Part shown: positions 41,039 through 46,168 of the stretch, in pieces
How positions within the stretch are numbered: the first letter of the stretch is position 1
Layout of the letters: every line of letters starts with the position of its first letter
Source: Bryobacterales bacterium
Lineage (GTDB): Bacteria; Acidobacteriota; Terriglobia; Bryobacterales; Bryobacteraceae
NCBI GenBank assembly: GCA_963747945.1
Contig: CAVVHB010000018.1
Span: forward strand, 224,868 to 288,867
Length of the DNA stretch: 64,000 nt
Direction of reading: 5' to 3'
Notes under the pieces: generated by a model
Seen by the model: the letters and a program-made list of their open reading frames with translations, nothing else
What the model was told of the DNA's origin: nothing
The model's database searches: none
Translations under genes and position numbers: made by a program

Positions 41039-44000
41039 CTATTGGGCCACCTGTCGGGCTTTCCTCAAGTCCGCCGCCGCTCCAACCACATCACCGATGG
41101 ATTTTTTGGCGGCCGCCCGAACCCGGTAGGCGTTCGCATACTTCGGGTTGAGGCGGATGGCCCGGTCCAGATCCACAATCGCCGGCGCCCACTGGTGAAG
41201 AAGAACCAGGACAAAGCCGCGGGCATTCAGCGCCAGCGTAAAATCGGGTGCGATGCGAAGCGCTTCGGTCAGTTCCACTATCGCTTCCCGGTATCGGCCC
41301 GCTTTCGTGAGTTGGCGCCCGAGCATATCGTGCTGCTGTGCCGAGCCTGACACGGTACCAAGATCCTTTGCGGCGATCGGCTCCGGTTGCGCTGGTAGCG
41401 CCGTCGGCGCCGGTACAATGATCGCTTCAGGTTTCACCGCCGGCACAGGCAGGGGAAGCACCGCGGGCGCTGCCAGATCCGGCACGCCAGACCGGCTGAT
41501 CCGAAAATCCACGTTTGTCAAATCCACTGGCTGGCTGCCCAGCCGAACGGTGCGCGCAGGGGTTTGCGTTTCGTTCCGAACCGATAATGTATAGGATCCC
41601 GCCGCCAGGTCGCGGAACAGATATCGTCCCTGCGGATCGGCTTTGGCCGTTGGGCCTGGCTCGTTCAGCAGGACCTCGGCCCCAATCACGGGAACATACC
41701 GCAGCTGCCTGGTGTCGTAGATGAGCACCTGCCCCGAAATGCTTCGAAGCGCTCGTGCGGTAAAGGCGGCCCTGCCCGGTGCTGCCTTCTCAACCGTTAC
41801 TTTTTGCGAGTCGCCAAATCCGTCCGCCGAATAACCGGCTGGCAGCGAATCCGGGTCCGCCTGAACATCGTAATCGCCGGCCACCAGAGACGATACGAAG
41901 AAGCTGCCATCCGCCTCCGTCGTCGCGCTCCACTTCTTTCCCCTGCTTTCGATCGTCACCGTGATACCGGCCACGCCTTGCCCCGCGTCGTTCAGCACCT
42001 TGCCCGCCAAGCCGGACAACGAATAGCCGATGCCGAAATTTGTTGTGGCATCTTCGTCCACCTCCAGGCTGGATGGAGTGGTAAAGAAAAACGGATCCTT
42101 GGAGGTGAACAAGGCCTCAATCTTGTGTTTTCCCCGGTGCACATTCGGGAAGCGGTACGAACCATCGACGCCGGTCAGGGTACGCCTGAGATCGTCCAAC
42201 ACCACCTCCACTTCGGCCATCGGCGGCATGCCCGGTTCCCATTCTCCCTTGGACTGGTTGTCTTGAAAGACCTTTCCCGTCATGGTCCCACGCCGTTCGG
42301 GAATGATGAAATAAGGCACGTGTTCGAACTGGTGACGAAAAGCAACGAAGCAAACGGGCGCGTATTGCTGGGGGCTTCCGGGCGTCTTCAATCCCAGGAC
42401 CGAACAAGACAGCGAGACATTGTTCGAAGGAGTAAGGCGCTGGATCAACGCCAGGGTGTGGACGATGTCTTCGGTACTTCCCTGCAGGGCCTGATTGTCG
42501 TTGTACTGAAAACTGTATGTCAGATCTCTCTTATGCGGGCCCTTGGTGGACCAGTCCGCGCTCCCGCCCAGCAGGCTACGCACGGGCACCACGTTAATGC
42601 TGGCCCCTTTTATAAATCCGGCCGCCATCAGGTAGGCGTCGCTCGACAAAAGCTCGTCCACCTGCTGAATGCTGGTCGCCTGGATGCCCTGTTGCTCGAG
42701 AATCTGCTGCAATCCCGAGACCTGGCCGAAGATGAAACTCAGCGTGGGGGCGTTCGTATCGCGTTCCGCATAGGCGTTGAAATTGAAACCGCCCCAACCC
42801 GTGTGTAGGTTTGCGCGAAACTGCCTGGCTCCGGTGTCATCGCCGGGCATCACCGAAAACTGGTATTGGCCATTGAGGCCAAAATGGCTGGATTGAAAGG
42901 CCAGGCCGGCGGGCAGGGTGAAGTTTCGAATGGTGGGGCCTGGCGGCGATTCGTTCCCGAACTTCGAGCCCTGCGCCCCGCCGGTAAGGGCCCAGTGCCT
43001 GGTGAGCTGATAGCGGAGATTGGCGGAGCCCGAAATGGTCGCTTCCTTTACGCCCGGCAGGATCAGGTTGCTTTTATAGAAGGACAGGTCCGTCTCGAAC
43101 TTCTTTGTGACGTGGCGCACCCAAGAGAGGTCTGTAAACAGCCCCCGTAAATTGTTGGCGCCCAGTGACGCAAATTCCACCGGCATGTAGCGCGCCAAGC
43201 CAAGGATCGTATCGTGGTCGCTGATGTAGTGCAGCCGTCCAGAGCCTGCCACGCCATCGCTGAACCCGAGGTCCGCGTTGAACCAGAAGTTTTCCCGAGG
43301 TTTGTACTGGTATCGCAGGTCGCCAATACTTCCGGAACGGCCCAGCCGGTCCGAAGAATGAACCCGTACCTCATAAAAAGATCCGGTTAGCGAAGAATTC
43401 TCGGTAAGCGGATAGCGGTATCCGCCGCCCGCCACTAATTCCGGCTGGACGGGCAGGAACAGGCCCTCGAACGTCTCCACGCTGGTGTAGCCGACATGTC
43501 CAAACCAGTTGCCGTCACTGAAATGGAGTCCCCGGATAATCGATCCATTGATGGTGAGCTGGGATTGGTCCACGTACTTGTCGAGCAGCGTGATGTCGCG
43601 GGATGGCGTGGCGATTTCATAACTGGCGGAGGACAACGCAACTTTGGGCAGGCCCTGCTGGGCAGCGCCTAGCAGGTTGGTTTCCACCACGTGCATATGG
43701 GTCCAGTTGTCGCCGTTCACTTTCATGAAGTCGATCTGGTTCTGGATCTCGGCGGGATTGGAATAATACCGTCCTTCGTAAAACCCGCTCTGGGCCGCCT
43801 CCGCTCCGGTGGTCGGCGCAACATAACCGGGGGGATAAACCGGAGGCATCAAGTTCACCAGGATTTCGAAGGTCTGCGCGCCAGCGGGCGTGACCACCAC
43901 TACATGGGTATCGCCGGCTACTTTGCCTTCTACCGTGACCACTCCATTTTCAGCCGTGGCCTCCGCGAAGAATTCGTCCAGCGTATAGGCCGCGGTGGCT

Positions 44001-44161
44001 CCGTCCACTTGAAAAGTGATGGTTTTGTTCGGATCGACCTTGTAAACCTGCCCCTGCAGCAGGAGACAACACAAAAGCAGCGCCGGGGGAGCCCGCCACA
44101 GCGCGGCACGCCTGTGACTCCTTAAGGCGCGCACAACGGAACGCGGCGGCAGTTGTTCCAC
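41039..44161 (-). CDS. giant envelope protein: signal peptide, secretin-N/pilus-formation-N-like domain, putative ~500-aa beta-barrel, 3 CarboxypepD_reg-like domains, Pro-rich linker and TPR repeats
   Basis: The track ORF (41039..44380) overlaps the upstream gene. I trimmed the start to GTG 44161 (alternative GTG 44134), giving RRAALWRAPPALLLCCLLLQG as the signal sequence.

Domains seen:
- N-domain: VYKVDPNKTITFQVDG...VVTVEGKVAGDTHVVVVTPAGAQTFEILV
- many amphipathic strands (LRYQYKPRENFWFNADLGF, ANLRYQLTRHWALTGGAQG)
- GxxxDxxGxY-type CarboxypepD_reg motifs (TGVDGSYRFPNV, TEADGSFFVSSL, ADPQGRYLFRDL)
- C-terminal TPRs. Confidence 0.75.
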   Translation of the reverse strand: MEQLPPRSVVRALRSHRRAALWRAPPALLLCCLLLQGQVYKVDPNKTITFQVDGATAAYTLDEFFAEATAENGVVTVEGKVAGDTHVVVVTPAGAQTFEILVNLMPPVYPPGYVAPTTGAEAAQSGFYEGRYYSNPAEIQNQIDFMKVNGDNWTHMHVVETNLLGAAQQGLPKVALSSASYEIATPSRDITLLDKYVDQSQLTINGSIIRGLHFSDGNWFGHVGYTSVETFEGLFLPVQPELVAGGGYRYPLTENSSLTGSFYEVRVHSSDRLGRSGSIGDLRYQYKPRENFWFNADLGFSDGVAGSGRLHYISDHDTILGLARYMPVEFASLGANNLRGLFTDLSWVRHVTKKFETDLSFYKSNLILPGVKEATISGSANLRYQLTRHWALTGGAQGSKFGNESPPGPTIRNFTLPAGLAFQSSHFGLNGQYQFSVMPGDDTGARQFRANLHTGWGGFNFNAYAERDTNAPTLSFIFGQVSGLQQILEQQGIQATSIQQVDELLSSDAYLMAAGFIKGASINVVPVRSLLGGSADWSTKGPHKRDLTYSFQYNDNQALQGSTEDIVHTLALIQRLTPSNNVSLSCSVLGLKTPGSPQQYAPVCFVAFRHQFEHVPYFIIPERRGTMTGKVFQDNQSKGEWEPGMPPMAEVEVVLDDLRRTLTGVDGSYRFPNVHRGKHKIEALFTSKDPFFFTTPSSLEVDEDATTNFGIGYSLSGLAGKVLNDAGQGVAGITVTIESRGKKWSATTEADGSFFVSSLVAGDYDVQADPDSLPAGYSADGFGDSQKVTVEKAAPGRAAFTARALRSISGQVLIYDTRQLRYVPVIGAEVLLNEPGPTAKADPQGRYLFRDLAAGSYTLSVRNETQTPARTVRLGSQPVDLTNVDFRISRSGVPDLAAPAVLPLPVPAVKPEAIIVPAPTALPAQPEPIAAKDLGTVSGSAQQHDMLGRQLTKAGRYREAIVELTEALRIAPDFTLALNARGFVLVLLHQWAPAIVDLDRAIRLNPKYANAYRVRAAAKKSIGDVVGAAADLRKARQVAQ

Positions 44162-44195
44162 GACCCGGACGGCGGACGCCGCCGCGTCCTGTGCG

Positions 44196-45564: not shown

Positions 45565-45634
45565 AGGAAGTCCAGACTGACTGGGAGTCGCTTCGGCCCA
45601 GCCAGTATTCGCGCGTTGCTCTGTGCGGCCGGTA

Positions 45635-46168
45635 TTAGTTAGCGGTCGCGGTGAAGTTGAGAGAGTTGGTCAGCGAACCGCTGGTATTGGAGGCCGGTAT
45701 TGTGACGGCGAAATTGTAAGGCGTCGCGGTCCCATAAGAGGCGAGAGTTACTTGAGGTGTAACGCCGGCGGCCGTAACAGCGATAGCATTGAACGACCAT
45801 GAGTTGACGATGTCGGCCGTGCCGAGGTTCGCAAGCAGGCCAAAAGTGGTACTGGTGCTATTCGCCACATCCACTTCAACGTTCACTGGCGTGGTGAGAG
45901 TAAACGATGTTGTCCCGGTGAGCGTCCGGGTTACGTTGGTCGGCACCGTGCCGCCGTACATCTGCACGTTTCCAAACGGCAGGGATGCCGTCCCCGTGCC
46001 GGTGCCAGTTACCGCGAAACCGCCGGTGGCGGTGGAAAAGAGGAGGTTGATGGAACCCTCGATGTCGGCGGTGACGCCCAAGGTTCCCCCGCTAGTCACC
46101 TGGGCGTTCGCGACTCCGGCGAGTCCCAAAGCGGATATTACTGTCATAAGAACAAGTTTGTTTTTCAT
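45635..46168 (-). CDS. secreted Thr/Gly/Asn-rich beta-strand protein, major fibre-subunit candidate (spore-coat-U/Csu-like in style)
   Basis: The start was moved to the ATG at 46168 (MKNKLVLMTVISALGLAGVANAQ). The mature ~155 aa are Cys-free with alternating-pattern strands, ending ...SLTNSLNFTATAN. It is the first gene of the operon. Confidence 0.6.
   Translation of the reverse strand: MKNKLVLMTVISALGLAGVANAQVTSGGTLGVTADIEGSINLLFSTATGGFAVTGTGTGTASLPFGNVQMYGGTVPTNVTRTLTGTTSFTLTTPVNVEVDVANSTSTTFGLLANLGTADIVNSWSFNAIAVTAAGVTPQVTLASYGTATPYNFAVTIPASNTSGSLTNSLNFTATAN

Follow-up and report, generated by a model that had tools for sequence, protein, structure and literature searches.

A conserved four-gene cassette of Bryobacterales as a candidate chaperone-usher-type assembly module for a surface fibre

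Proteobacteria, Cyanobacteria and Deinococcus-Thermus are the groups from which chaperone-usher pili are known, and every such pilus depends on one usher family; Acidobacteriota is not among the phyla listed as hosts of the archaic systems (PMC4654587). The non-classical members, such as Csu (CsuA/B-CsuC-CsuD), CupE, ECP (EcpA-EcpB-EcpC) and CFA/I (CfaA-B-C), share an operon logic of subunit(s), chaperone and pore. Here we analyse four genes, g1 to g4, which follow the same logic on the contig CAVVHB010000018.1 of a Bryobacterales bacterium (assembly GCA_963747945.1), at positions 41039-46168 of a stretch of 64,000 nucleotides (nt) that we refer to as the window. With moderate confidence we suggest that this cassette assembles a thin surface fibre in the manner of chaperone-usher systems and is built from undescribed protein families. 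In the full-text literature we found no description of an Acidobacterial or Bryobacteraceae chaperone-usher system, nor of a link between WxL proteins and chaperone-usher systems.

The barrel of the usher has 24 strands and carries its plug as an insert between strands 6 and 7. In Slam (type XI) secretion, a periplasmic TPR part and an outer-membrane barrel export beta-rich surface proteins. In the archaic and alternative chaperones the C-terminal carboxylate of the subunit is held by an invariant Arg of domain 1 (strand F) together with an Arg and a Tyr of domain 2, and the G1 strand, which donates alternating hydrophobic residues, begins 21-22 residues past the Arg of domain 1 (PMC4654587). 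The WxL/WxLIP clusters of Firmicutes belong to monoderm cells and have no outer-membrane component; in their commonest form they comprise two WxL genes and one WxLIP gene, and the WxL partner is predicted to be bound through a strand that WxLIP inserts (PMC10599100).

The four genes are consecutive open reading frames (ORFs) in one direction (Table 1). The first-pass annotation, made from the letters of the window, had described them as a tightly packed operon, and this was borne out by the ORFs, by the spacers and by an independent gene calling on a public contig with identical DNA, which reproduced the calls of g1, g2 and g3. The spacers measure 70 nt between g1 and g2, 4 nt between g2 and g3, and either 61 nt (GTG at 44134) or 34 nt (GTG at 44161) between g3 and g4. 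The GTG at 44134 fits the N-termini of the homologues best and gives 1031 amino acids (aa); the database call of 1061 aa begins 29 nt within g3, and the size of g4 ranges over ~1031-1061 aa with the choice of start.

The cassette is kept as a unit in related genomes. We obtained 127 scored matches for the g4 core, and three distant g4 homologues were found adjoined by proteins of ~170-180, 170-175 and 260-275 aa in unchanged order. With one genome scanned per species, 20 loci were obtained, all from Bryobacterales or from unclassified Terriglobia/Acidobacteriota metagenome-assembled genomes (MAGs), and the close homologues all come from Bryobacterales/Bryobacteraceae MAGs, Candidatus Sulfopaludibacter and Paludibaculum; so far the cassette has been found only in Bryobacterales. 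For the synteny analysis we fetched 23 loci, drawn from at least 20 Bryobacterales genomes, and searched all their ORFs by BLAST with the four proteins. Matches to g4 were present in all 23 loci, to g3 in 22, to g1 in 21 and to g2 in 21. Most loci retain the order g1-g2-g3-g4, at protein identities as low as ~30-48%; a few are cut or fragmented. No ORF of the window other than g1-g4 was conserved with the cassette across the 23 loci, and the flanks are common to the two closest relatives only. The four genes form a real, self-contained and conserved cassette, and their synteny extends across Bryobacterales.

Table 1. Features of the cassette and of its surroundings, in coordinates of the window
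Feature	Residues	Coordinates	Strand	Remarks and basis
g1	177 aa	46168..45635	minus	from MKNKLVL, C-terminus ...LNFTATAN; ORF list
g2	179 aa	45564..45025	minus	ORF list
g3	274 aa	45020..44196	minus	from MRFESRL; ORF list
g4	~1031 aa	41039..44134	minus	alternative starts 44161, 44224; ORF, start by homologue alignment and sequence
g1 candidate donor strand (GGTLGVTADIE)	g1 27-37	46058..46090	minus	conservation and hydrophobic alternation, 125 representatives
g3 candidate G1 donor strand (GLGASLGTLITFNLS)	g3 155-169	44514..44558	minus	most conserved g3 strand, alternating hydrophobic
N-terminal beta domain, pilus-N (CpaC/RcpA N-terminal) type	g4 39-102	43856..44047	minus	confident in model
Predicted beta-barrel, ~26 strands	g4 124-612	42326..43792	minus	26 long strands by DSSP
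Helical insert, candidate gate or plug	g4 470-526	42584..42754	minus	between strands 21 and 22
Three CarboxypepD_reg (prealbumin-like) sandwiches	g4 624-888	41498..42292	minus	Pfam and model; position of usher C-terminal domains
Pro-rich disordered linker	g4 889-937	41351..41497	minus	pLDDT <50 at 891-935
Three TPR repeats	g4 938-1040	41042..41350	minus	TPR_11, TPR_2, TPR_1 above threshold
GC-rich hairpin in g1-g2 spacer		45576..45606	minus	just 3' of g1 stop codon
Hybrid kinase, receiver and Hpt domains		37551-38960	+	
GGDEF-domain protein		39102-40115	+	
Response regulator		40182-41006	+	N-terminal half without assignment
DUF2490 small outer-membrane-type protein, first of a pair		46891-47628	minus	E 2.5e-17; upstream of g1
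OMP_b-brl protein, second of the pair		47943-48659	minus	E 2e-8; upstream of g1

The pore proposed for the module is g4. Its AlphaFold2 model, built from an alignment of 32 sequences, has a predicted local distance difference test value (pLDDT) of 79.7, and the protein opens with a basic n-region and a hydrophobic stretch before QVYKVDP. Pfam assigns only three CarboxypepD_reg domains (PF13620, E 2.8e-21) and TPRs, leaving residues 1 to ~640 without a family. The N-terminal likeness to CpaC/RcpA, which had been read from the letters, reappears as a weak match to PF13629 in 13 of 18 g4 homologues (best E 1.4e-4, below the Pfam threshold). Likewise the membrane barrel that had been placed in the centre of g4 is found as a big predicted beta-barrel matching outer-membrane barrels, and Pfam and the model agree on the three CarboxypepD_reg domains, the Pro-rich linker and the TPRs. 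If all 26 strands belong to the wall, the periplasmic turns have 2-6 residues and the extracellular loops 1-57, lengths that are usual in outer-membrane barrels and that would put both termini on the periplasmic side. The helices of the insert lie at residues 474-513 with low to moderate pLDDT, and residues 470-526 are among the best-conserved stretches in a family with an overall identity of 39-85%; we propose that this insert gates the pore.

After the linker the model holds six TPR helices, which show weak similarity to the NCBIfam models of PilW and Tgl, TPR lipoproteins of the pilotin type (PilW/PilF, Tgl, TadD). The TPRs are absent in many g4 homologues of ~880 aa. That the CarboxypepD_reg domains might be dispensable as well, given homologues of ~700 aa, was considered and rejected as unproven; in one such case (P0089, locus L017) g4 is split in two overlapping ORFs. 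Unlike the CpaC/RcpA secretins of Tad/type IV pilus systems, g4 has no secretin domain (PF00263), and its body would be a single-chain barrel and not a multimeric secretin. No Tad or type IV pilus genes are conserved near the cassette, and Pfam gave no match of g4 to the secretin, DUF560/Slam or TonB-dependent plug and receptor families.

When the g4 model was compared with the PDB by Foldseek, the seven best matches were all full-length FimD, with E-values from 2.6e-16 to 1e-12 over 791-936 columns at 8-11% identity. They were followed by prealbumin-like pilin and TIE proteins, aligned to the C-terminal sandwiches, and then by MOMP, TonB-dependent transporters, LptD, porins and isolated FimD/PapC pores, with E-values from 1e-8 to 1e-6. 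Full-length FimD leads by ~4 orders of magnitude over any other kind of protein and by ~8 over any non-usher barrel. In the model it is the collinear plan that singles out the usher: like FimD/PapC (PDB 3rfz, 6e14, 9fy9; 2vqi, 3ohn), g4 would combine a periplasmic N-terminal domain, a giant barrel and C-terminal sandwiches, and the alignments to FimD run over ~800-940 columns. The first-pass annotation had called the pore completely different from an usher, a statement that does not hold with full-length FimD as the best structural match.

The model of g3, the proposed chaperone, has a pLDDT of 72 overall (80-93 in domain 1 and 62-82 in domain 2) and consists of two Ig-like beta-sandwiches, residues 43-146 and 159-272, joined by a loop at 149-157 with pLDDT <50. 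Two Ig-sandwich halves had been expected, and both the model and its PDB matches agree with this. The top Foldseek match is WxLIP of Enterococcus faecium (PDB 9i25, 9i1y) with an E-value of 3.7e-12, including the structure of a WxLIP-WxL complex. Next come PapD-like-superfamily domains (HYDIN, CEP192) and RbmA, and among the further matches are the chaperones CfaA (E 7e-9, target-normalised template modelling (TM) score 0.48), CsuC (3e-8), EcpB (5e-8, TM-score 0.55) and CupB2, with E-values up to 3e-7. By target-normalised TM-score (0.41-0.55) these four rank above all other matches listed. The description of g3 as PapD-type is thus right as far as the chaperone fold matches go, but the best match is a Gram-positive WxLIP.

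By sequence g3 belongs to no chaperone family. Among 36 g3 homologues the Pfam matches below threshold were to fn3_5 (36 of 36), Cep192_D3 (33), MSP (28), HYDIN/VesB-like Ig domains (23), WxLIP_PGBD (PF06030; 17) and ASH (8), and most of these Ig-like families we take to be members of the PapD-like/MSP/ASH group. None of the 36 matched PapD_N/C in Pfam at E up to 1 and none matched DUF3324, and the g3 profile gave a single weak match among the PDB sequences, an MSP domain (E 0.38). The protein ends right after its last beta-strand and has no C-terminal transmembrane helix.

One detail of g3 that resembles a chaperone is the strand GLGASLGTLITFNLS, in which A158, G161, L163, T165, F166 and S169 are invariant. 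An invariant R136 opens the strand before the flexible loop, and A158 follows 22 residues later; the corresponding spacing is 22 in EcpB (R89-A111) and 21 in CsuC (R89-V110). Domain 2 holds the invariant residues R229 and Y251, 22 residues apart, along with conserved K207, R219 and R252, and the mapping of these is ambiguous. The pattern is suggestive of residues 155-169 as the G1 donor strand and of R136 as the carboxylate anchor. We propose that g3 is a periplasmic chaperone that is PapD-like by its predicted fold and not by sequence family.

The N-termini of g1, g2 and g3 read as Sec-type, with AxA-like cleavage sites and no lipobox, as judged from the sequence only. With no lipobox and no PEP-CTERM tail, lipoprotein or PEP-CTERM subunits were rejected. 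Mature g1 contains 21% T, 12% G, 11% A, 9% S and 8% N and nearly no charged residues. In g2 S and G are abundant and T and N are not, and the Thr/Gly/Ser/Asn-rich character assigned to both small proteins hence applies fully to g1 and only for S and G to g2. A comparison of the two profiles by hhalign gave a probability of 98.8% and an E-value of 1.3e-16 over the full length, which shows g1 and g2 to be paralogues. Neither protein has a Pfam or NCBIfam match at E up to 1. An exhaustive hidden Markov model (HMM) search with the g1 profile delimited a family of 409 representatives at 50% identity, and 125 of these, scanned singly against Pfam, matched no recurrent family and showed no SCPU, fimbrial, DUF4402 or WxL signal. 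The suggested likeness to Csu/spore-coat-U pilins hence finds no HMM support, and to judge from these searches g1 and g2 make up an undescribed protein family.

Several features of the two proteins would fit subunits of the pilus type, if indirectly. All g1 homologues end at one alignment column, after a conserved alternating last strand (...NTINFTATAN), and the C-termini of the g2 homologues lie at most one residue from ...VAFxATLR. Mature g1 starts with a conserved Gly and an alternating hydrophobic strand, GGTLGVTADI, which is kept across the diverse family, unlike the N-terminus of g2, which is not conserved after the signal peptide. In the comparison with a profile of 15 E. coli pilins this strand was the sole segment of g1 or g2 to align, with a weak match to the N-terminal extension of FimA (12 columns, 50% probability). 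Two invariant cysteines, C102 and C146, are found in g2 and not in g1, and g1 has a single conserved Trp, W124. Small size, secretion, a fixed C-terminus and a composition of the thin-fibre type are shared with the subunits of non-classical chaperone-usher systems. In our reading g1 would be the major subunit, which donates the strand, and g2 would be a minor or tip subunit.

Several N-x-S/T motifs are conserved in g1 (NVT, the invariant N103-S-x-S106, NTS and NFT), and glycosylation of g1 is conceivable from them.

The hairpin behind g1 is found at the same site in nearly all of the loci L001-L023, with stem sequences that vary from genome to genome. In an RNAalifold analysis of 18 loci 8 base pairs of the hairpin were kept, 5 of them with compensatory double changes, and no U-tract follows 3' of the hairpin. 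The major-pilin genes of the pap and fim operons offer an analogy in their intercistronic elements. By this analogy the hairpin is probably an intercistronic element which stabilises the mRNA or partly terminates or attenuates transcription, and it may serve to raise g1 above the downstream genes.

From these data a scheme of fibre assembly can be sketched. Both subunits would be exported by Sec: g1, the major one, and g2, the minor or tip one, which is presumably disulfide-bonded. In the periplasm g3 would capture the subunits, its strand 155-169 completing or shielding their beta-sheet, and would also hold their strictly conserved C-terminus. The complex would then dock on the periplasmic parts of g4, that is the pilus-N-type domain, the three prealbumin-like domains and, in many species, the TPRs. 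The subunits would traverse the ~26-strand barrel, with the conserved helical insert, and not a beta-sandwich plug, as the probable gate. At the surface a thin, uncharged, Thr-rich fibre would form, in which each g1 inserts its conserved N-terminal strand into the groove of the subunit that follows, and the hairpin 3' of g1 would probably keep g1 above the machinery.

In favour of a chaperone-usher-like fibre speak the synteny, in which only these four genes are conserved, the FimD-like plan of g4 and the chaperone matches of g3 with its Arg-to-strand spacing. Further support comes from the paralogy and fixed C-termini of g1 and g2, the g1 N-terminal strand, the extra g1 copies listed below and the hairpin. 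Neither the fold of g3, nor the barrel of g4, nor the synteny spoke against the interpretation given in the first-pass annotation, which is essentially supported.

A number of results weigh against this reading. The chaperone-usher families, namely PF00577, PapC_N/C, PapD_N/C, SCPU and the fimbrial families, are absent from the cassette at E up to 1, as had been noted from the letters for the classical usher; in g4 neither Pfam nor NCBIfam detects PF00577, PapC_N or PapC_C. Reference alignments were built from the fim, ecp, sfm, yad, yeh, yra and elf operons of E. coli K-12, and no hhalign comparison with them was significant, with probabilities of 0.2-3% for the ushers and chaperones: 1.2% for the g4 family against seven E. 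coli ushers, where the local alignment covered the usher C-terminal domains only, 0.2% against EcpC, and 3% for g3 against the E. coli chaperones. The family of the N-terminal domain of g4 differs from that of the usher, and its profile found only noise among the PDB sequences. Where an usher carries its plug the g4 model has none: DSSP finds no inserted beta-sandwich in the barrel, and after strand 7 only a low-confidence loop of 15 residues, and the helical segment 470-526 is the sole large insert.

The structural matches themselves must be read with care. The FimD score of the g4 model appears to be partly additive, made up of barrel and generic sandwich matches, and the global TM-scores between g4 and FimD are low, 0.2-0.3, which is expected because the domain orientations differ. 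As isolated usher pores and other barrels all score 1e-8 to 1e-6, the modelled barrel alone is not diagnostic of an usher as opposed to LptD or the TonB-dependent transporters, and a crude test for amphipathic strands in g4 could not tell a barrel from a soluble sandwich. For g3, WxLIP beats the chaperones of chaperone-usher systems by E-value in the comparison of the model, many unrelated tandem-Ig proteins match this model as well, and its quality is moderate. No PDB sequence was matched significantly by the profiles of g1, g2 or the broad g1 family, and the subunit fold, the strand it would lack and the polymerisation are hypothetical.

It is possible, though on balance unlikely, that the same parts make no fibre, and that g4 secretes or displays g1 and g2 as monomers or as a small complex with g3 as their holder. 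The cassette would then be a diderm counterpart of the WxL/WxLIP complex, or an exporter of the Slam type with TPR and barrel. In its favour, WxLIP, with a WxL-bound structure, is the top fold match of g3, WxLIP_PGBD recurs in 17 of the 36 g3 homologues, and the two small proteins next to g3 mirror the commonest WxL cluster (PMC10599100); it also needs no polymerisation, which our preferred reading presumes. On the other hand, the WxL domain (PF13731) gives no signal in g1, g2 or the 125 relatives, and where WxLIP consists of DUF916, DUF3324 and a C-terminal transmembrane helix, g3 lacks DUF3324 and the helix. With Slam the cassette shares TPRs and barrel in one polypeptide next to small, beta-rich secreted proteins, but g4 has no DUF560, its barrel is far larger and its TPRs are C-terminal and dispensable, and the cassette has a dedicated Ig-fold partner and non-lipoprotein substrates. 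The g1 N-terminal strand, the extra g1 copies and the hairpin also better fit a polymer with a major subunit.

Further, we tentatively consider that the cassette represents an independent class of outer-membrane assembly for fibres or surface proteins, one that does not descend from chaperone-usher systems; like the previous alternative we regard this as rather unlikely. It would combine a strand donor of the WxLIP type, an Ig-fold partner nearer to the monoderm WxLIP than to PapD, with a 26-stranded pore assembled from pilus-N, prealbumin-like and TPR modules. If true, it would mean either an evolutionary bridge or a convergence between the Gram-positive WxL complexes and the Gram-negative chaperone-usher pili.

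Less probable still is that the cassette is a true archaic (sigma) chaperone-usher system, so divergent that its similarity has eroded past HMM detection. Its gene order of subunit(s), chaperone and usher is the expected one, the folds match FimD, CsuC, CfaA and EcpB, the Arg and G1-strand spacing resembles that of the non-classical chaperones, and archaic systems are already phylogenetically wide (PMC4654587). The parts, however, differ in kind from those of the non-classical ushers: g4 has a PF13629-type N-terminal domain, ~26 and not 24 strands, no plug, a helical insert, optional TPRs, and three C-terminal domains that are confident members of CarboxypepD_reg. Nor is there any SCPU signal in the 125 subunit relatives, and the hhalign probability is 3% or less for both usher and chaperone.

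That g4 is a porin or exporter of a non-protein substrate, such as an exopolysaccharide (cf. PgaA, BcsC, AlgK/AlgE), or an uptake channel, with g1-g3 as accessories, we consider highly improbable: TPRs and a large barrel do lie in one protein, on its own the barrel scores similarly against usher pores and against LptD, TonB-dependent transporters, Wzi and porins, and a GGDEF protein and response regulators adjoin the operon, but conservation with the cassette extends to no glycosyltransferase, polymerase or TonB-related gene, the TPRs are absent in many homologues, no TonB-dependent plug or receptor family is matched, the signalling genes occur only in the closest relatives, and two paralogous secreted subunits with a chaperone-fold protein would be left unexplained. 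Polysaccharide export was rejected, as no such genes travel with the cassette.

The loci of the relatives show some variation. In Paludibaculum fermentans (L001) the cassette occupies ~7,032,300-7,037,400 of CP063849. In L007:4485-7966, from a Bryobacterales MAG, a partial duplication gives the order g1-g2-g3-g1'-g3'-g4 with two chaperone-like genes. Extra g1-like genes lie 3' of g4 in L001:9122-9655 (Paludibaculum), L018:11158-11727 and L021:11664-12194, and one on the opposite strand in L003:7016-7579. In other loci g4, and sometimes g3, is split into at least two overlapping ORFs (L017:7971-10686, L016:7995-11047, L019, L020 and L022). These are mostly MFD-named MAG assemblies, and we take the splits to be probably assembly frameshift errors. 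Because g4 is split in this manner in several MAG loci, some of the ~700-aa homologues in the database are probably artefacts and not natural truncations.

A phage-type integrase adjoins the cassette on one metagenomic contig (L003:454-1911), and in another locus IS110 and IS630-type transposases do so (L002:9065-9889 and 11803-12381). As these genes adjoin it in two loci, the cassette may move between genomes.

In the window a signalling cluster on the + strand (37551-41006) is convergent with g4. Its genes are common to the closest relatives only, and a regulatory link from this cluster to the cassette is therefore unproven. The DUF2490 and OMP_b-brl genes on the other side do not accompany the cassette elsewhere, and a sulfatase-family gene a few kb upstream (49079-50830, + strand, PF00884, E 2.5e-45) is apparently unrelated to it.

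If our reading is right, Acidobacteria of soil and peat possess a module with the same overall plan as the chaperone-usher systems, but with another N-terminal domain, another barrel size, another gate, other C-terminal domains and a subunit family that has not been recognised. Either the structural range of chaperone-usher systems would then be wider than thought, or the same solution would have evolved twice. A link to WxLIP would connect a poorly understood surface system of Gram-positive bacteria with assembly by strand complementation. The cassette also gives a testable function to several families of "hypothetical" proteins, of which the g1 family is alone as large as stated above, and one carrier, Paludibaculum fermentans, is a named GenBank strain, which should make it accessible to experimental work. 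For the bacteria themselves the product is likely an organelle of adhesion or biofilm formation in an abundant but little-studied soil lineage.

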